From a virus (taxonomy: Duplodnaviria > Heunggongvirae > Uroviricota > Caudoviricetes): a stretch of DNA of 40,927 bases. The stretch lies in the IMG/VR virus record IMGVR_UViG_2541047877_000008, one strand, 5' to 3'. Shown here piece after piece: positions 4,000-35,130 of this stretch. A program made the translations under genes and the position numbers. The notes under the pieces are model-generated. The model had not been told where the DNA came from, made no database searches, and saw only the letters and a list, made by a program, of their open reading frames with translations. Each line of letters starts with the position of its first letter. Position 1 is the stretch's first letter.

Positions 4000-4296
4000 T
4001 CAAATAGAGAAATAAACACAAAAACAAAAAACAACAGGAACAGCAAAATCCAACAGACTTCCCACATCCCACACGCGTGGATCAAAACCTCCCCACCACG
4101 GCATGTTGATACGTTTCCCTTTCCCAAACTTTTCTATCCAGCGATATTCTGCCTGGGTGTGTTCACGCGCAATGAAGAACGTACAACCGGCTATCGCACC
4201 GTAAGCCCAGTTTCCGGTAAAAATACCAACCAGTACCTGAGCCACAAAAGCGCAAAGCGAGTGAAGAAATGGAGTGACATCAATGCTCTTAATCAT
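4000..4296 (-). CDS. Small two-TM membrane protein translationally coupled to the tailspike gene (function unknown)
   Basis: ORF track 98 aa; start overlaps tailspike stop (ATGA-type overlap at 4293-4296); two hydrophobic segments; followed by an AT-rich 190-bp spacer before the holin gene. Confidence 0.4.
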   Translation of the reverse strand: MIKSIDVTPFLHSLCAFVAQVLVGIFTGNWAYGAIAGCTFFIAREHTQAEYRWIEKFGKGKRINMPWWGGFDPRVWDVGSLLDFAVPVVFCFCVYFSI

Positions 4297-6482
4297 GAAA
4301 CTTCCCCATTGGTTGAAAATATGGCTCCTCCAACGCCAAGTGTATTTCGTGTTGTGCTCAACCTCAGAGGGCTGGAGTCAGAATTAGAATATCCTGTAGC
4401 AGAAATAAAAGATCCTCCACTAATAGTCAACTGCGGAACATCGGCTATATCTGAATAAGTTCTGTCAGCAACAGTATTATTTATAGCCACATATGATCCA
4501 AAAAAACTTCTTATTGTTTGGTTTTTAACTTTACTTCCTTCAATGGTTATCCTACTACCACAGTCGGCAATAAATCCTGAATCTGCATCCAGCGTTGCAT
4601 TCATAAAAGAAGCTTCAGATCTCTCTACATCAATCCATCTAATATCTTTTGTGGGATTTGCACCAAATACATGACAAATATTAGAGTTAAACCTTACACC
4701 ATCTTGGAGGTGCATTAATTTTTTTATATCTGTACCCCATAGCCTTGGAAAATTAACAGATGCTCCTGCATGGCAATCAAATCCCAGCTCAGCCCCTGAG
4801 ATATCTACAGCCTTTCCTGAAATAACAGCACCAGTGTCTGCATTAACGGCTGTTCCACAATTGCGCATATCATTACCAGCAACATCAACGCAACCCGCAC
4901 CATCAATACGCACACCAAGTGCACATCCATAAAAACCTTTTTCAATATTTGGTTCAAGGACTTTACCACTTGTTTCTGCATCACTTTCTTCAACGTCATG
5001 TCGTCTTGCATCAACATATGCTGTATGAATGCAGGTTAATCCACGATATGAGCAATGTATAGTTTTATGGTCGCGTATATTAACATTTGAACCATCTCTT
5101 ACATTCCATCCTATATAACAATAGCTTGCACTTGACCCCTGAAAATCTGCTTTAACATTATAAATACAATTAACTGACGCAACCGTACTCTCTGTGCACC
5201 GTTCAAACTTGCTTACAGGCATTGATGCCTTGACATTATTTACCAGTTGCAGGGAAGAGTATCTGCTATAAGAAAAATCACATACGTAATACCCTTCTGG
5301 CATATATGCAGCAACACTTTCCTCATCAGGAGCACATCCGGTATGATATGCACTAATTTTTGCACCAAAACTACCATGAATTCCAACGTAGAACTTTCGA
5401 GCACCTGAATACGGATAGAAATTAAGTTCAGCTTTTTGAGTTACAATAAATGCACAAACATCGCTATCATCTCTATTTTCTTCGATCTGAATAGCAAATA
5501 CAGGACTTTTTGCTGCATCGCAAATGTAAAATAAATACTTGTATTCGTAATACGTTCTAACGATTTTAGTAAACAAACGAGTGTCAGAGAAAACCACTGA
5601 GTCTTCTGATGTTATTTTAATCCAAGACAAATCAACACCTGAACTGAATTCAATTTGATAGTTGATAATATGCCCGGTCTTAATTCTTATTTCGCAGAAA
5701 GCATTACCACCATCCCACATAGGTCTCATTGACTGGGCTGCAATGATTGCATCTTTGAGTGTAGGGTAATCACCCCATTCGCCAACAGTAATAACAAAAG
5801 TATAATATGAGTTAAAAACAGCGGCATTTTTGCCTTTGGATATCAACTCCTTAATCATAAAAATATTATCTTCGTAATCACAAGGAGAAATTATATCCCT
5901 CATTTTGCTTTGAAATGTTCGTTGTCTTGCCCCGCTTCCTGACGGTATAAACCAACCAAAACCACCAACAACCCCGGCGATTGCAGCATCGACATAATTA
6001 CGCATTGAGCGATTATTTACAGCGTCCTGCTCAAATGATGGATCTGCAAGGTTAGAAATTTTGTTTTGCTTTGCATCGTAATATTTTGCAAGCAAAGATG
6101 GTTTCATCAATGCACGTCTGAACCACCCAAAACATCGCTGGATCAGCATCGTCAGGTAGTCAAATGCATCTTCATGAACTTCGGGGAAAAATTTTCCCTG
6201 ATTGCGAAGATCAGTCTCCTGCACCACATCAAGCACACGCTCTATCGTAATTCGCCAGCCAGCAGCAAGCGGCGACGGGAGAACCACTTCACCGCCACTA
6301 TAAGTGCCCGCTCCAGTTACCTTATAACCGGTATCCAGAACCAATTCTGTTACGTTCCCGTTCAGGTCAGACACCTGAACAACCAGGTCGGTTTTTTTGA
6401 AAATACGGAAGGTATACGGAAATGATGTCGTAACGCCGTTACCGGTGTATTCGTTGTGGTCAACTTCGGTTGAGACCGTCAT
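4293..6482 (-). CDS. Tailspike / receptor-binding protein with T7 gp17-like N-terminal attachment domain
   Basis: ORF track 729 aa; N-terminal about 170 aa (NEYTGNGVTTSFPYTFRIFKKTDLVVQV...) resembles the particle-binding domain of T7-type tail fibers; remainder is Ser/Asn/Gly-rich and encoded by markedly AT-rich DNA (about 4300-5950). Confidence 0.75.
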   Translation of the reverse strand: MTVSTEVDHNEYTGNGVTTSFPYTFRIFKKTDLVVQVSDLNGNVTELVLDTGYKVTGAGTYSGGEVVLPSPLAAGWRITIERVLDVVQETDLRNQGKFFPEVHEDAFDYLTMLIQRCFGWFRRALMKPSLLAKYYDAKQNKISNLADPSFEQDAVNNRSMRNYVDAAIAGVVGGFGWFIPSGSGARQRTFQSKMRDIISPCDYEDNIFMIKELISKGKNAAVFNSYYTFVITVGEWGDYPTLKDAIIAAQSMRPMWDGGNAFCEIRIKTGHIINYQIEFSSGVDLSWIKITSEDSVVFSDTRLFTKIVRTYYEYKYLFYICDAAKSPVFAIQIEENRDDSDVCAFIVTQKAELNFYPYSGARKFYVGIHGSFGAKISAYHTGCAPDEESVAAYMPEGYYVCDFSYSRYSSLQLVNNVKASMPVSKFERCTESTVASVNCIYNVKADFQGSSASYCYIGWNVRDGSNVNIRDHKTIHCSYRGLTCIHTAYVDARRHDVEESDAETSGKVLEPNIEKGFYGCALGVRIDGAGCVDVAGNDMRNCGTAVNADTGAVISGKAVDISGAELGFDCHAGASVNFPRLWGTDIKKLMHLQDGVRFNSNICHVFGANPTKDIRWIDVERSEASFMNATLDADSGFIADCGSRITIEGSKVKNQTIRSFFGSYVAINNTVADRTYSDIADVPQLTISGGSFISATGYSNSDSSPLRLSTTRNTLGVGGAIFSTNGEVS

Positions 6483-6585: not shown

Positions 6586-6602
6586 ATTACCTTTCAGGTG
6601 AT
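6586..6602. promoter_or_regulatory. Operator-like palindrome ATTACC-TTTCA-GGTGAT
   Basis: Read directly from sequence; member of the TACC-N5-GGTA family; lies in the divergent region between the tailspike start (6482) and the ant-paralog gene. Confidence 0.5.
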
Positions 6603-6677
6603 TCGCAAAACGTGCTGGATAGCAAACAAATTATTTGCTACTGTATAAATATACAGTTATTGCATGGAGAAGATAAG

Positions 6678-6935
6678 ATGCAGCAGTATCACTATCCACT
6701 GGAAGACGGATTTACCGAAAGGATTCACACGCCGGGAGGCGTCAGGTCACTGGTGGAGGGATCGCATTTGATGAAATTACTCCGGGATCTCGATAAGGAT
6801 GGATTTAATGTCGATGGCCCACTTGCCGAACTGACTGCACTGATTAACTACGTCACCAGCTCACAGATGTCTATGCGGGATCTGCAAACACATCTCGACT
6901 ATTGTGCCGAACAATTACGAAAACAAACCAGATAA
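6678..6935 (+). CDS. Small protein paralogous to the C-terminal domain of the antirepressor
   Basis: Within track ORF 6612-6935; ATG at 6678 preceded by GGAGAAG; C-terminal about 55 aa align with the C-terminus of the 7249-7935 product (LMxLL..L..DG..V.G..AELT....Y.......RD.QTH..Y). Confidence 0.5.
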   Translation: MQQYHYPLEDGFTERIHTPGGVRSLVEGSHLMKLLRDLDKDGFNVDGPLAELTALINYVTSSQMSMRDLQTHLDYCAEQLRKQTR

Positions 6936-6938
6936 GGT

Positions 6939-6982
6939 TTGCAATTGCCAAGTGGAGTGCTTATATTTACCTTTGCGGTAAA
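6939..6982 (+). promoter_or_regulatory. Sigma70-like promoter (TTGCAA-17-TATATT) overlapped by operator-like palindrome TTTACC-TTTGC-GGTAAA
   Basis: -35 TTGCAA 6939-6944, 17-bp spacer, -10 TATATT 6962-6967; palindrome 6966-6982 overlaps the -10 element and predicted start site. Confidence 0.5.
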
Positions 6983-7016
6983 TTTACATCGCACTCCTCT
7001 TGTGCCATAGTAATCG

Positions 7017-7038
7017 GGCACTGGCAAAATCCAGTGCC
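7017..7038 (+). other. Stable stem-loop in the ant leader (8-bp stem GGCACTGG / CCAGTGCC, loop CAAAAT)
   Basis: Perfect inverted repeat read from sequence. Confidence 0.5.
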
Positions 7039-7075
7039 GGGATTGGCGTCCCGAGTTACTACAGAGGCACATATG

Positions 7076-7095
7076 CCGCATAAGCGGTTTTTTTT
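7076..7095 (+). terminator. Rho-independent terminator / attenuator upstream of the antirepressor gene
   Basis: CCGC-ATAA-GCGG hairpin followed by eight T (7088-7095), about 100 nt downstream of the 6939 promoter and 150 nt upstream of the ant start. Confidence 0.6.
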
Positions 7096-7248
7096 ATGTG
7101 TAAAGCGCACCTATTCTATGGTGGGCTGTGTGGGGGCACCGAAAGGTGCGCCGGGTCCTTTGTAGCCGGTTACGCCAACCCTGCACAGTTCACCACCAAC
7201 CGATTGGCGTCGGTAGTGGTGATTAACCTAACTACAAAGGTGATCACT

Positions 7249-7935
7249 ATGACTGCTAACGTAACCCCATCTGTTTTTCATTTTGAATCAGAAGCAACCA
7301 TTCGAGCCATTGTTATTGATGGAAATCCTTGGTTTGTTGCCAAAGACGTTATTAAAGCTCTTCAACTGACAAACCCCACTATGTCAATAAAATCTCTTGA
7401 TGATGATGAAAGGGCTAAATTTAACTTAGGCCGTCAAGGCGAAACCAATATTATCAACGAGTCAGGCCTCTACACACTGATCCTCCGCTGCCGCGATGCA
7501 GTAACACCAGGCACTATCCCCTACCGCTTTCGCAAATGGGTTACAGGTGAGGTACTTCCTCAGATCCGCCGCACCGGAAGTTACATTAAAAACTCGCTCC
7601 CGCAAGAAGAACGCATAAAGATGGTTGCCGACCAGGTAGCCAACGCCACGGCGTCAGCAGTGATGCAGGCAATGAAGATAGAGAACAAAACCTACAGCGC
7701 CCCACTGAAGCCCGGCTACCGCAGCCTGATTCACTCGCCGTCTGGTGTTCTCGGCCTGACGGAGAACTCACTGCTGATGAATCTGCTGAACCAGTTACAG
7801 GAAGACGGGCACGACGTATCGGGCGCGGCGGCGGAGCTGACCACCATGTTCTGCTACATCGTCGGTGTGAGTAAATGCCTGCGTGATATCCAGACCCACG
7901 CGGAATACATCAACGACAAAGCAGGGTTCTTCTGA
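7249..7935 (+). CDS. Antirepressor-like protein with N-terminal Bro-N domain
   Basis: Track ORF 7096-7935; ATG at 7249 with SD AAGGTGA; N-terminal IRAIVIDGNPWFVAKDVIKAL matches the Bro-N fold common to phage antirepressors; located between ejection genes and tailspike like P22 immI. Confidence 0.7.
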   Translation: MTANVTPSVFHFESEATIRAIVIDGNPWFVAKDVIKALQLTNPTMSIKSLDDDERAKFNLGRQGETNIINESGLYTLILRCRDAVTPGTIPYRFRKWVTGEVLPQIRRTGSYIKNSLPQEERIKMVADQVANATASAVMQAMKIENKTYSAPLKPGYRSLIHSPSGVLGLTENSLLMNLLNQLQEDGHDVSGAAAELTTMFCYIVGVSKCLRDIQTHAEYINDKAGFF

Positions 7936-7977: not shown

Positions 7978-8021
7978 TTGCAGACTGGGGGTGAATAGCG
8001 TACTATTACCTTAAAGGTAAA
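7978..8021 (+). promoter_or_regulatory. Promoter (TTGCAG-17-TACTAT) overlapped by operator-like palindrome ATTACC-TTAAA-GGTAAA
   Basis: -35 7978-7983, -10 8001-8006, palindrome 8005-8021; about 25 bp upstream of the strong RBS GAGGAGGAG of the 8047 gene. Confidence 0.5.
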
Positions 8022-8046
8022 CCATGTGTTTACATGAGGAGGAGAT

Positions 8047-8256
8047 ATGGGATTTTGGTTCGCTCGTACAAAAACGAGGGATAATGCACCCAGCCCTCAG
8101 GCAAAAAATGCAGAAGTTCCGGCGTCAGCGCAGGTTAACAAGCGTGGTGGTGTGTATATCTCATCACAGCAAATTTCTGAGCTTCCTGAGGTTAAGGAGA
8201 TGCGTCGTCTCGCTGCTGCAATCGTTAAACAGGATCTTGCCACTGTAAGGAAATAG
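8047..8256 (+). CDS. Small hypothetical protein, first gene of the accessory cassette
   Basis: ORF track 69 aa; strong SD GAGGAGGAG 8036-8044; stop overlaps the GTG start of the next gene (TAGTG). Confidence 0.5.
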   Translation: MGFWFARTKTRDNAPSPQAKNAEVPASAQVNKRGGVYISSQQISELPEVKEMRRLAAAIVKQDLATVRK

Positions 8257-9119
8257 TGTTGTTAGCTCTTCTAATTATCCCCATTCTGGTTAGTGGTTAT
8301 ATTATGATAACCGCTAACCAGTATCATTATTTCCGTTTATACCGACATGAAGGCCAGCTTCTTTATATGAAAGTTGCTGCATTAGGTACATATTGCCTTG
8401 TTGCTTCGGTAATAATTGCCGCATTTATAAAATATAAATATCCTGATTTTCACCTAGTTCACGATATGGTGGAAACTTTTAATGTAACGTCAAAACCAGA
8501 AACAGATAGAATTTACATGTGGCTACTTCTTCTGTCAGTCACATCAATTTGCTTCTCTTTGTGTTATGTATCTTTTGTTTGGCTAAAAGATCTTCTTTTA
8601 GGTTGTTTTTATAAACGTGATATTTATGACAAAATATCAGAGGCAATGAAAGCTAGGGTATTGCGAAAAACGTACTCCCAGGGTTCTTTAGATTTGCTAT
8701 TGCTTGATGCAATCGAATCAGATCCTAAGAAACCAATGTTAATTACTTTATCATCAAATAAAGTATACGTTGGAATAATAAATGGTTCTGGTGAGCCAAC
8801 GGAAAATCAAGGGCCACACCAACACATATCTTTTGTTCCTTTAATGTCAGGGTACAGAAACAAAGAAAATTTATCTGTTACATTTACAAACGCTTACCCA
8901 GGTGAAATCCAAATTAAGCGCAGTGCTGCGATAAAAGGGATAAGCAAAAAGAAAGTTCAAGGTCTAGAAATTATGGTATCTATAGACGAAATAAGTCATA
9001 TATCATGGTTTGACTTTGAAGTATATAAGGCAACAAATAACAAAGTAGAAACAAAGGGTCATGTTGTTAATGTGACCAAAAATGGTCGCAACATATACTA
9101 CAGAAGTGGCAGAAAATAA
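8256..9119 (+). CDS. Membrane protein (about 3 N-terminal TM helices plus about 175-aa soluble domain), AT-rich cargo gene; candidate superinfection-exclusion/defence component
   Basis: ORF track 287 aa, GTG start coupled to upstream stop; hydrophobic segments in first about 110 aa; DNA strongly AT-rich relative to neighbours; no motif recognised. Confidence 0.5.
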   Translation: MLLALLIIPILVSGYIMITANQYHYFRLYRHEGQLLYMKVAALGTYCLVASVIIAAFIKYKYPDFHLVHDMVETFNVTSKPETDRIYMWLLLLSVTSICFSLCYVSFVWLKDLLLGCFYKRDIYDKISEAMKARVLRKTYSQGSLDLLLLDAIESDPKKPMLITLSSNKVYVGIINGSGEPTENQGPHQHISFVPLMSGYRNKENLSVTFTNAYPGEIQIKRSAAIKGISKKKVQGLEIMVSIDEISHISWFDFEVYKATNNKVETKGHVVNVTKNGRNIYYRSGRK

Positions 9120-9135
9120 ATTTTACGCAGTTTAG

Positions 9136-9648
9136 GTGGCTTATATGGATAATACTATCTTAGGCGCATTGATAGGTGCAGTTATTGCTATAGTTTCCAC
9201 TTATATAAATGCAGGACAAGGATACAAAAACAGCATAAGATTAGAGCGACAAAAAATATTAAGGGATAAACGCGAGCAATTATTTATAAATTGTATACTT
9301 ACTAAAAAAGTCATAGATTCAAGCACAATTACCATTCTCAATTTCGTAAAAAATGCCAGATACCACTCTGATAGTAAATTTGACGTATCAAGAGCGAATC
9401 CGTTGCAAACGATGGAAATGCTAATAAACATATACCTTCCTGAGTATAAAAAAGACTTACAAGAACTCAATAATGCGTATCAAGAATTTCACAAATACTA
9501 CTCTCAATATACATGTGCACATACCTTCAAAAATATGCCTGATAATGAGAAGTCGAGGTTTATTGAGGAGGCTGATTTTTATGCAAAAAAGATATATGGC
9601 AAACTTAATGATATTAAGGACAAGATATCATTAAACTCAATAGTATAA
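9136..9648 (+). CDS. Membrane-anchored protein (single N-terminal TM, K/E-rich soluble domain), AT-rich cargo gene
   Basis: ORF track 170 aa; N-terminal ILGALIGAVIAIVSTYI hydrophobic helix; AT-rich; 16 nt downstream of previous gene. Confidence 0.5.
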   Translation: MAYMDNTILGALIGAVIAIVSTYINAGQGYKNSIRLERQKILRDKREQLFINCILTKKVIDSSTITILNFVKNARYHSDSKFDVSRANPLQTMEMLINIYLPEYKKDLQELNNAYQEFHKYYSQYTCAHTFKNMPDNEKSRFIEEADFYAKKIYGKLNDIKDKISLNSIV

Positions 9649-26235: not shown

Positions 26236-26273
26236 TTGACATTTAACGCACAAATTATTACCTTTCAGGTAAC
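26236..26273 (+). promoter_or_regulatory. Promoter-like TTGACA box with operator-like palindrome ATTACC-TTTCA-GGTAAC, upstream of the tRNA unit
   Basis: TTGACA 26236-26241; palindrome 26257-26273 17 bp downstream (putative -10 TACCTT inside the half-site). Confidence 0.45.
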
Positions 26274-26594: not shown

Positions 26595-26671
26595 GTGGCA
26601 TTAGCTCAGTTGGACAGAGCAACCGCCTTCTAAGCGGTTGGTCGCAGGTTCGAATCCTGCATGCCGCGCCA
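26595..26671 (+). tRNA. tRNA-Arg (anticodon TCT, reads AGA)
   Basis: Manually folded cloverleaf: acceptor GTGGCAT/ATGCCGC, D-stem GCTC/GAGC, anticodon stem ACCGC/GCGGT with loop CTTCTAA, T-arm GCAGG-TTCGAAT-CCTGC, discriminator G, encoded CCA; 77 nt. Confidence 0.85.
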
Positions 26672-29808: not shown

Positions 29809-29850
29809 AACCACCGTGGTAATAGTTACCGTTGTGGTAATAGTACCATG

Positions 29851-32720: not shown

Positions 32721-32799
32721 TTTACCTCTAAGGTAATTAAAAACCACATAAGACACGAAATCAATAGAGTTTAGAATATTTTGTTACCTGATAGGTAAT
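32721..32799. promoter_or_regulatory. Two operator-like palindromes (TTTACC-TCTAA-GGTAAT at 32721-32737; GTTACC-TGATA-GGTAAT at 32783-32799)
   Basis: Read from sequence; located between the P-like gene terminator and the DUF1064 gene start. Confidence 0.5.
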
Positions 32800-33636: not shown

Positions 33637-34433
33637 GCTTCAGGGCTGTTCCAGTGCGGAACGTTGTTATCAGGTAATGTTGATTGCTTCTGTCTGCTAA
33701 TCTGCAGCCGCCTTGCCAGCTTCTGCTCCCACTGTGCCTGATGGTATGCCTTACCCTCAGCCATCCAGTAAATTCTGAACTCTGCAAGTTCCTGTGCCGT
33801 TGGCAGACTGTCCAGGTAGATCCCCTGCAATGAGCTTTTCCGAAGAAAGTCATCTGATGGCTGCCATTGTTCATGCATGACAAATTTGCCTAATTGCCCT
33901 GGCCCACCAGGAGGAACAAAGTTATTCATCACGGCGTTGTTTGCGTTGGGGTCATGATGCACAGAATCCCCGTTTTTTGTCCTGCTCTCCCTCTCTTGGT
34001 TAAATGACTGGTTATATGACTGGTTCTGGATCCCGTTTTTGGGATCATTCAACATCCCGTTTTTGGGATCATTCAACATCCCGTTTTTGGGTATATTCCC
34101 GTTTTCGGTAACATTACCGTTTTCGGGTTCATTGCCCCCCTCCCGGTTGCCTTTAATGTTCCCGTTTTTGGTTATATTAAGAGAGAAAACCCGCACTCTT
34201 TTTGTCGCTCCCTTTCTCTCTCCGGTATCTGAAATAAGCCCCATTTTCATGAGCGATATAAGTCCGGCCTGCACGGTTTTTTTATTCAGGCAAGTGTCTT
34301 TAACGAGGCGTTCTATGCTGGGGTAGCAGAGGTTATATTCATCGGCTCTGTCAGCCATCGAGAGCAGTATGAGCTTTAATGATGAGCTACCTGGATCTGT
34401 CTCCCAGGCCCAATCTGTTGCATGTCTGCTCAT
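33618..34433 (-). CDS. Replication initiator (O-like): N-terminal HTH domain, repeat-encoded middle, DnaT-like C-terminus
   Basis: ORF track 271 aa; N-terminal LKLILLSMADRADEYNLCYPSIERL HTH pattern; internal tandem peptide repeats (PKNGMLND) coded by the iteron array. Confidence 0.6.
   Translation of the reverse strand: MSRHATDWAWETDPGSSSLKLILLSMADRADEYNLCYPSIERLVKDTCLNKKTVQAGLISLMKMGLISDTGERKGATKRVRVFSLNITKNGNIKGNREGGNEPENGNVTENGNIPKNGMLNDPKNGMLNDPKNGIQNQSYNQSFNQERESRTKNGDSVHHDPNANNAVMNNFVPPGGPGQLGKFVMHEQWQPSDDFLRKSSLQGIYLDSLPTAQELAEFRIYWMAEGKAYHQAQWEQKLARRLQISRQKQSTLPDNNVPHWNSPEAWEDFL
33967..34171. repeat. Iteron array (putative phage origin of replication) inside the O-like gene
   Basis: Copies of TCCCGTTTT(T/C)GG at 33967, 34031, 34055, 34079, 34097, 34115 (TACCGTTTTCGG) and 34160; spacings 24, 24, 18, 18 bp in the core. 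Confidence 0.7.
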
Positions 34434-34448
34434 GATTAATCTCCGCTA

Positions 34449-34649
34449 TCAGCTTGAGTGTTGTGGGGAGGAATTAATCATGATCTGCTTAATCTCTGCC
34501 CTGATGCGACGGTTTGATTCCATGGTGCACTCAACACAGTGTCCGTTGTAAACCCAGCGTTCACTGTCATGTCCGTGCTTACATGGTTTTCCGGTGTAGT
34601 AGCGTTTAAGTCCGCGCTTTGCGGCATCAATACGTGTAATGATTTCCAT
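34449..34649 (-). CDS. Small Cys/His-rich protein in the cII position
   Basis: Within track ORF 34449-34712; ATG 34647-34649 with SD AGGG; motif CKHGH...CVEC. Confidence 0.4.
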   Translation of the reverse strand: MEIITRIDAAKRGLKRYYTGKPCKHGHDSERWVYNGHCVECTMESNRRIRAEIKQIMINSSPQHSS

Positions 34650-35065: not shown

Positions 35066-35130
35066 TTCACCTATAAGGTAACAAAAATCAAGGATAGTTA
35101 CCCATGAGGTGCATTTACCTGTTGGGTAAT
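35066..35130. promoter_or_regulatory. OR-like operator cluster (three 17-bp sites: 35066-35082, 35097-35113, 35114-35130)
   Basis: TTCACC-TATAA-GGTAAC, GTTACC-CATGA-GGTGCA, TTTACC-TGTTG-GGTAAT; centre spacings 31 and 17 bp; between the cro-like start (35030) and the repressor start (35185). Confidence 0.6.

Follow-up and report, generated by a model that had tools for sequence, protein, structure and literature searches.

A LexA-box antirepressor gene and a Bro-N gene behind IsrK- and C4-type RNAs as likely tandem antirepressors in an Escherichia coli prophage

The 40,927-nucleotide (nt) stretch analysed here, IMG/VR record IMGVR_UViG_2541047877_000008 (the window), is an Escherichia coli prophage of the epsilon15/phiV10 type (Uetakevirus). 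It carries two + strand open reading frames (ORFs), here called ant and ant2, whose products of 85 and 228 amino acids (aa) share a homologous domain (coordinates in Table 1). We consider it likely that they are two tandem antirepressor genes answering different signals, ant lying behind a LexA box and ant2 behind a leader with RNAs of the IsrK and C4 types. A first-pass annotation had taken the small product for a detached duplicate of the C-terminal domain of the large one. Our comparisons reverse this relation: the large gene is best read as carrying a copy of the small antirepressor, and the small gene as no spare piece of the large one.

The two products align without gaps, residues 2-79 of the small one with residues 147-224 of the large one, and 32 of 78 positions are identical (41%; BLASTP expectation value, E, 2e-16). 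The Smith-Waterman score is 165, against 26.4 +/- 4.4 (maximum 62) in 2000 shuffles, a z score of ~32. When the profiles of the two families were compared (hhalign; 99 homologs of the small protein against the C-termini of Bro-N homologs), they matched over 79 ungapped columns with a probability of 99.7% and an E of 6e-27, and 15 residues proved invariant in both families (Y4, P7, I16, H17, G21, V22, S29, M32, L35, G42, V45, G47, E51, Y58 and H72). The alignment first noticed in the sequence is thus significant against shuffled controls, and the R-D-(L/I)-Q-T-H..Y motif that had drawn attention to it falls inside the shared region; that region is about 78 residues long, not the 55 or so proposed originally. 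Pfam recognises Bro-N in the large protein (residues 18-104, E 5e-20) and none in the small one, again as the first-pass annotation had it.

When the ant and ant2 domains were aligned by codon, nucleotide identity was 48% and third-position identity 33%. Within each of the genomes compared (8 of 8, from four genera), the two copies are 36-40% identical, and the duplication is therefore old. Each family also keeps a segment of its own, NYVTSSQ in Ant and YIVGVSKC in Ant2. The ratio of nonsynonymous to synonymous substitution (dN/dS, Nei-Gojobori) of the Ant2 C-terminal domain is 0.08-0.29 in informative comparisons, that is, those in which synonymous divergence was measurable and not saturated. 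As far as such comparisons can tell, the C-terminal domain of Ant2 is an ancient paralog of Ant under purifying selection. In Klebsiella, gene conversion between ant and ant2 was suspected from the segment GHDVSGAAAEL; we dropped this candidate because the segment is present in many small Ants and is therefore ancestral.

The identity of the small gene is close to certain: it is the prophage's primary, already characterised antirepressor. Among solved structures its product has a single match, PDB 5D50 chain E ('Anti-repressor protein', 86 aa; phmmer E 1.4e-46, residues 2-84 against 3-85). This chain is the Ant of Salmonella phage SPC32H, co-crystallised with the repressor Rep, and the window and SPC32H copies are 86.7% identical (tblastn). 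In the SPC32H record the copy is labelled ant, and it adjoins and diverges from the tailspike gene, as in the window. The Ant-Rep system of SPC32H, with structures 5D50 and 5D4Z, was reportedly worked out by Kim & Ryu in 2013 (J Virol) and Kim et al. in 2016 (PNAS). The window also encodes a full-length match to chain A of the same structure, the 'Repressor', and this Rep is 42% identical to that of SPC32H and 98.5-100% identical to those of E. coli relatives. Ant forms a narrow family, with 147 clusters in a set of 5.8 billion proteins, and every one of them comes from Enterobacterales. In the phage database Ant is present in 35 records and this type of Rep in 36 (at least 80% coverage), the two sets of records being essentially identical. 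The small ORF is a real gene, as shown by its ribosome-binding site (GGAGAAG, 6 nt 5' of the ATG), its low dN/dS (0.04-0.18 in informative comparisons) and its crystallised ortholog.

The LexA box of the ant promoter region holds the same position in the window, phiV10 and SPC32H, where TACTGTATAAATATACAGTT aligns with TACTGTATGTTTATACAGTG of SPC32H; the window has 3 matches to the pattern CTGT-N8-ACAG where 0.55 would be expected. Such a box ahead of ant is, at the level of sequence, the signature of a primary SOS-induced antirepressor. Ants of this class are under LexA control, SOS induction and LexA cleavage letting the antirepressor be made, after which it inactivates the repressor by protein-protein contact (PMC7380047). 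SPC32H Ant, itself tetrameric, attaches to two Rep dimers and breaks up the Rep tetramer (PMC9638917). With ~87% identity, the window protein would be expected to do likewise, binding Rep dimers as a tetramer and freeing Rep from DNA.

These data bear directly on the earlier suggestion that the small protein is a free interaction domain, a decoy or anti-antirepressor damping the Bro-N protein. A homologous domain is indeed common to both proteins, and given that Ant is a tetramer (PMC9638917) mixed assemblies are conceivable. Yet the small protein has as its ortholog a proven antirepressor for which a crystal structure with the repressor exists, its gene has, to judge by the LexA box, the control seen in other primary SOS antirepressors, and of the two genes it is the Bro-N gene that is lost or broken. 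Moreover, the small gene stands without any Bro-N gene in SPC32H, in epsilon15 and in further Salmonella relatives, so it cannot exist to modulate one. The decoy role is contradicted on each of these grounds and we regard it as highly improbable. The same annotation had offered, as an alternative, a partner of the repressor, and this pointed in the right direction.

The leader that separates the two genes provides the evidence for a second kind of control. Elements that have ant2, whether from E. coli, Salmonella, Klebsiella or Enterobacter, keep one gene order: tailspike (-), then ant (+), a ~320-nt leader, ant2 (+), cargo that varies and, last, structural genes (-). A small ant lies within 1 kb 5' of ant2 in 49 of 80 IMG/VR loci; in most of the others there is a 1.1-kb insertion as in TL-2011b, with ant just beyond it. 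The leader of the window matches the Rfam models of both isrK and C4, the latter over its full length. Its putative promoter stops 7 nt short of the Rfam isrK start, and this promoter segment is kept in relatives that have the 1.1-kb insertion between ant and isrK. The boxes of C4 are exact complements of the target boxes, of which a' overlaps the Shine-Dalgarno sequence of ant2, AAGGTG.

We analysed covariation of these boxes in 54 unique anchored leaders. They hold five a-box alleles (CAAAGG, AAAAGG, AAGTGG, AGTAGG and AAAAAGG) and five b-box alleles (GGCGT, TGCAC, GAGAC, GGTCT and GGAAC) in 12 combinations, and the C4, IsrK and ribosome-binding-site copies agree in all 54. The window is of the CAAAGG/GGCGT type and phiV10 of the AAAAGG/GGCGT type. 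In the allele class of the window, IsrK a1 differs from a' by one base that is compatible with G-U pairing, and in the phiV10 type a 1-nt deletion is present in all three box copies. Between C4 and the ant2 leader 89.6% of cells are paired, and between IsrK and C4 95.4%, against 23-50% with the partner slid; the unpaired cells are mostly alignment shifts of one allele class. Seven to eight pairs have changed on both sides, and the covariation score was matched in 0 of 500 shuffles. Duplex energies of whole C4 with its whole targets were uninformative (z scores of -1.1 and -2.1), and we relied on box complementarity and covariation instead. On this basis ant2 translation is very probably under C4/IsrK control.

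Profiles of C4 and isrK mark immunity RNAs beside Bro-network genes (PMC10111431, PMC7313666). An Ant unrelated to Ant2 in both halves follows, in Shiga toxin (Stx) phages, a leader that is ~85% identical to that of the window and shows compensatory changes within its C4 hairpin; the leader is therefore a portable regulatory cassette and not part of one conserved gene. One such Stx phage, vB_EcoP_phi296, has its isrK and C4 leader at 2390-2640, in the nin region, with an a-box allele of its own (GAAAAAGG), and the leader is found in 142 phage records at 80-90% identity. Many gene callers start ant2 at ATG 7096, which lies in frame with it and gives a 279-aa form. This frame crosses the C4 RNA, lacks a Shine-Dalgarno sequence and meets no stop before ATG 7249; it is not conserved in the leaders of phiV10 and of Stx phages, which have a 1-nt indel in the a-box. 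The longer form is similar to the fusion of orf45 with anrP described for Shigella dysenteriae (PMC4825925).

Table 1. Positions of the genes, RNAs, boxes and operator-like sites discussed in the text (window coordinates).
Feature	Position	Strand	Remarks
Operator-like palindrome TTACCTTTCAGGTGA	6587..6601	.	77-91 nt 5' of ant start codon
LexA (SOS) box TACTGTATAAATATACAGTT	6639..6658	+	ant promoter region; near-consensus
ant	6678..6935	+	85-aa antirepressor, SPC32H Ant ortholog; 5D50 chain E, phrog_450 E 7e-48
Operator-like palindrome TTACCTTTGCGGTAA	6967..6981	.	adjoins -35 of putative isrK promoter
Putative isrK-C4-ant2 promoter	6983..7011	+	TTTACA, 17 nt, CATAGT, with TG; consensus scan
IsrK-type RNA	7018..7094	+	Rfam RF01394, 74.2 bits vs gathering score 50
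IsrK boxes	b1 GATTGGCGTC 7041-7050; a1 CTACAGAGG 7059-7067	+	
IsrK intrinsic terminator	7075-7088 + U run	+	terminator scan
C4-type antisense RNA	7114..7200	+	Rfam RF01695, 79.5 bits vs gathering score 45; model 1-87, full-length
C4 boxes	a2 hairpin loop CCTTTGTAG 7157-7165; b2 bulge ACGCCAA 7172-7178	+	
Predicted C4 target, ant2 translation-initiation region	7202..7240	+	b' GATTGGCGTC 7202-7211; a' CTACAAAGG 7232-7240
ant2	7249..7935	+	228 aa: Bro-N (nt 7300-7560), linker, Ant-like C-terminal domain (nt 7687-7920)
Three operator-like palindromes	35067..35129	.	divergent region 5' of rep
rep	35185..35769	+	194-aa prophage repressor, presumed Ant target; 5D50 chain A E 4e-42

The distribution of the two halves of Ant2 points to its C-terminal domain as the part that would meet Rep. 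This domain matches 5D50 chain E (E 1.1e-13), and no Pfam model matched it. Relatives of the Bro-N half are found in 722 phage records (Actinobacteria, Firmicutes and Proteobacteria), whereas those of the Ant-like half are found in 34, all inside the set that has the free-standing Ant and this type of Rep; the C-terminal domain is therefore the lineage- and repressor-type-specific part. When 1.84 billion representative proteins were scanned in full with a hidden Markov model, just 64 clusters had the Ant-like domain; it stands alone in some, and in the others it forms the very C-terminal end of Bro-N, AntA, Phage_pRha, ORF6N or Bro-N+ORF6C proteins. In phiv142-3, for instance, AntA replaces Bro-N on a C-terminal domain ~84% identical to that of the window. 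We infer that the C-terminal domain is matched to the Rep family and that the N-terminal domain is a generic partner. The Ant-like domain would then let Ant2 bind Rep and so open a second way to antirepression, gated by RNA, and we lean slightly towards this activity.

A different possibility, which we consider unlikely, is that Ant2 is no antirepressor of Rep and that its Ant-like domain only oligomerises a Bro-N DNA-binding protein with another job, such as phage or host gene regulation or interference with competitors. The residues in common with Ant may be structural, the Bro-N models weakly resemble DNA-binding folds (SKI-DHD, Mbp1/APSES and DdrC, best E 0.03), proteins of the Bro network have diverse roles, one of them acting as repressor in PLE, a Vibrio satellite (PMC10111431), and Ant2 is dispensable. 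However, a purely oligomerising role fits poorly with an Ant-like domain confined to phages with this Rep type when Bro-N is ubiquitous, and with a C4-type leader that precedes antirepressors in P1 and Gifsy-1. Likewise, the presence of four unrelated N-terminal domains on the same C-terminal domain suggests that the latter holds the conserved function.

Several observations weigh against an action of Ant2 on Rep, an activity deduced from sequence relationships, or against parts of the wider scheme. The residues common to Ant and Ant2 could be the core of the tetramer and not a Rep-binding surface. In the AlphaFold model of Ant2 (40-sequence alignment) Bro-N is confident and the C-terminal domain is helical with a predicted local distance difference test (pLDDT) score of 35-67, and a Foldseek search of this model against PDB returned only weak Bro-N-like matches and did not recover 5D50. 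Ant is kept at ~87% even where the Reps of the phages compared share only 42% identity, which blurs the specificity relations. Compared with the window, Salmonella relatives have Rep at 42% and Ant at 87% identity, and Klebsiella relatives Rep at 45%, Ant at 60-64% and the Ant2 C-terminal domain at 48%; by these identities, neither Ant nor the Ant2 domain gave a clear signal of tracking Rep divergence. Promoter hexamers for ant were not resolved by the consensus scan. Finally, SPC32H, epsilon15 and the remaining Salmonella phages of the database lack ant2, their ant being followed directly by structural genes; PAS61, BUCT554 and BUCT711 lack it too, and a deletion of 16 bp shifts the frame within its Ant-like domain in phiV10 and in O157 typing phages 9 and 10. 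Judged by this distribution, ant2 is an accessory gene and a dispensable partner.

The phiV10 deletion lies at about 4380-4430, and ant2 is annotated there as two ORFs of 194 and 29 aa; phiV10 and the typing phages 9 and 10 are working temperate phages without an intact Ant2. In the Klebsiella phage ST512-KPC3phi13.3 (1781-2038, 2860-3315) ant and ant2 are set apart by an inserted DUF1902 protein, and the Ant2 annotated there (151 aa) has lost most of Bro-N and keeps the Ant-like domain intact.

The two modes of control could operate as follows. LexA would keep ant off until DNA damage removes it, and the Ant then made would, by orthology with SPC32H, bind Rep dimers and break the DNA-binding Rep tetramer, leading to lytic growth. 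For its part ant2, an ancient Ant-domain paralog on an interchangeable Bro-network N-terminal domain, would be expressed from its own promoter through the IsrK/C4 leader. In the lysogen the a2 and b2 boxes of C4 would pair with a' and b' at the start of ant2 and block Ant2 synthesis, as c4 of P1 does for ant. The a1 and b1 copies in IsrK would mimic the ant2 target and compete for C4. In Gifsy-1, IsrK pairs in trans with the downstream segment and turns on AnrP translation (PMC4825925; Hershko-Shalev et al. 2016), and competition for C4 by box copies would explain this activation. Since the terminator scan found no terminator between the ant stop codon and IsrK, SOS-induced ant transcripts would end with the IsrK boxes and could, more speculatively, titrate C4.

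That adjacency, with no terminator between ant and IsrK, also agrees with a role of Ant2 exerted through Ant, in which mixed tetramers of homologous and probably tetramer-forming domains would alter how strong antirepression is, when it sets in or which DNA it targets, as an amplifier or a brake, and SOS transcripts might relieve C4 repression of ant2. Against this, the paralogs are only 36-40% identical in every genome and have family-specific segments, a pattern that divergence away from cross-assembly would produce, and the 1.1-kb insertion of many relatives would uncouple ant transcription from isrK-ant2. We give such mixed assemblies little chance. This insertion, which separates ant from the isrK promoter, occupies 4280-5368 in TL-2011b and recurs in at least 17 IMG/VR loci (e.g. 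L016, L017, L021 and L070); it encodes, on the opposite strand, a membrane-anchored, cysteine-rich (zinc-ribbon-like) protein.

Returning to separate actions of Ant and Ant2, the diversity of the boxes may have consequences for immunity. The window, phiV10 and phiv142-3 have the same Rep (100% identical) and different box alleles, and the combination of near-identical Reps (98.5-100%) with different alleles suggests an RNA-based layer of immunity. A related phage with another box allele would escape the C4 of the resident prophage, make Ant2 and neutralise the shared Rep. By analogy with P1 and P7, the box alleles would then act as a second immunity specificity, with a role in heteroimmunity; we see this as possible and somewhat doubtful. 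Still more tentative is the general form of the proposal, in which the Ant domain would be the repressor-targeting module of Bro-network 'antirepressors' and Uetakeviruses would have a P1/P7-style bipartite immunity in which a near-invariant Rep is joined by an RNA lock that is hypervariable (at least 5 x 5 alleles, 12 combinations). If true, it would show which half of the Bro-network antirepressors antirepresses, and the RNA lock would decide which related phage expresses Ant2 and overrides resident repression.

Rep may itself take part in this circuit. The palindrome TTACC-N5-GGT(A/G)A occurs 36 times in the window against 3.2 expected and 41 times in SPC32H against 2.8, a roughly ten-fold excess. 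The sites lie in intergenic promoter regions, one each 5' of ant, isrK-ant2 and the cargo genes; besides those of Table 1 they are found at 8006-8020, 26258-26272, 29826-29840, 32722-32736, 32784-32798, 35827-35841 and 35889-35903. SPC32H has a palindrome at equal distance 5' of ant and an equivalent triplet beside rep (34390-34451), plus others, and the palindrome at 6967 is present in all related leaders, its arms kept and its 5-nt spacer variable. From its sequence and placement, the palindrome is probably the Rep operator, scattered around the genome like the C1 operators of P1. With sites before ant, isrK and the cargo genes, Rep may repress all three units, which would create, speculatively, a positive feedback once Rep is inactivated. 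The site before the isrK promoter also suggests that resident Rep could silence an incoming ant2, and this would weaken the superinfection model.

Several known systems resemble parts of this arrangement. With SPC32H Ant-Rep the window has in common the ant ortholog and its length, the tailspike neighbour, the LexA box position and the repressor family, although SPC32H has a Rep of only 42% identity and neither isrK-C4-ant2 nor cargo 3' of ant. The immI locus of P1 and P7 (c4, icd, ant1/2) likewise has a C4 RNA whose two boxes match upstream and ribosome-binding-site copies (PMC7313666), an antirepressor-type gene downstream, and box alleles that differ among phages sharing the primary repressor. 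In contrast to that locus, the downstream protein of the window is made of Bro-N and an Ant-like domain, no clearly conserved icd-like ORF is seen, the upstream boxes are part of an IsrK-type RNA that has a terminator to itself, and 12 allele combinations are found against the two classical ones. The layout of a2/b2 with a'/b' and a1/b1 is also that of seqA-CI-seqC in P4. In P22, immI (mnt, arc, ant and the sar RNA) is an antirepressor locus beside the tailspike gene and a second immunity determinant, with different proteins and regulators.

The isrK-orf45-anrP unit of Gifsy-1 has the same succession of an IsrK with a terminator (leaky in Gifsy-1), a conserved structured segment and an antirepressor gene. 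There, however, orf45 and anrP overlap at AUGA, whereas in the window the frame from ATG 7096 is fused to ant2, 1-nt indels shift it in relatives, and the whole unit stands directly 3' of an ant with a LexA box. The Bro-N of Ant2, the swaps with AntA, pRha and ORF6N in relatives and the adjacent immunity RNAs are as in the Bro-N network (PMC10111431), with the difference that the C-terminal module, for which there is no Pfam model, is the domain of a free-standing, structurally characterised antirepressor. The small LexA-controlled antirepressors of Gifsy and Fels-2 phages and Tum of phage 186 follow the same logic, in which the repressor stays uncleaved and is inactivated by a small protein made on SOS induction (PMC7380047); the likeness is one of logic, and these systems are not known to have a second, RNA-gated paralog.

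Thus the small gene (SPC32H Ant family), the leader (C4/IsrK immunity RNAs) and Ant2 (Bro network) are each already known. What appears not to have been described in the searchable literature is that the free-standing Ant domain is also the C-terminal module of Bro-network proteins, that both forms stand in tandem in one prophage under probable LexA and antisense-RNA control, respectively, and how far the box alleles diversify. Annotations as 'Bro-N antirepressor' are mostly guesswork and the repressor-contacting domain is rarely known. A domain seen in a solved complex that occurs both alone and on four Bro-network front ends offers a handle to test whether the C-terminal module sets repressor specificity. 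Within one prophage, the same effector domain would be wired both to DNA damage, by way of LexA, and to a lock made of antisense RNA, and the diversity of box alleles suggests that an RNA immunity layer exists among very common prophages of E. coli, Salmonella and Klebsiella, including those of the phiV10 type used for O157 detection. In practical terms, the 85-aa 'hypothetical protein' of hundreds of E. coli genomes should be called Ant, and the isrK and C4 RNAs should be marked between ant and ant2.

Downstream of ant2 the window carries three cargo genes of unknown function on the + strand (8024-9648; ORFs 8047-8256, 8256-9119 and 9136-9648, phrog_5739, phrog_3630 and phrog_36918), which matched neither Pfam families nor PADLOC defence systems. 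In relatives (L008-L011) the same slot holds YafO-like toxin, KilA-N or Arc-like genes and is therefore a variable moron site. Near the lysis/integration end of the prophage there is a full-length Rfam match to STnc490, an Hfq-binding small RNA (1687-1810, - strand; 146 bits against a gathering score of 56). The prophage also has a tRNA gene at 26595-26668 (+ strand; Rfam, 69 bits), and at the equivalent place, close to the terminase genes, SPC32H has a tRNA-Arg.

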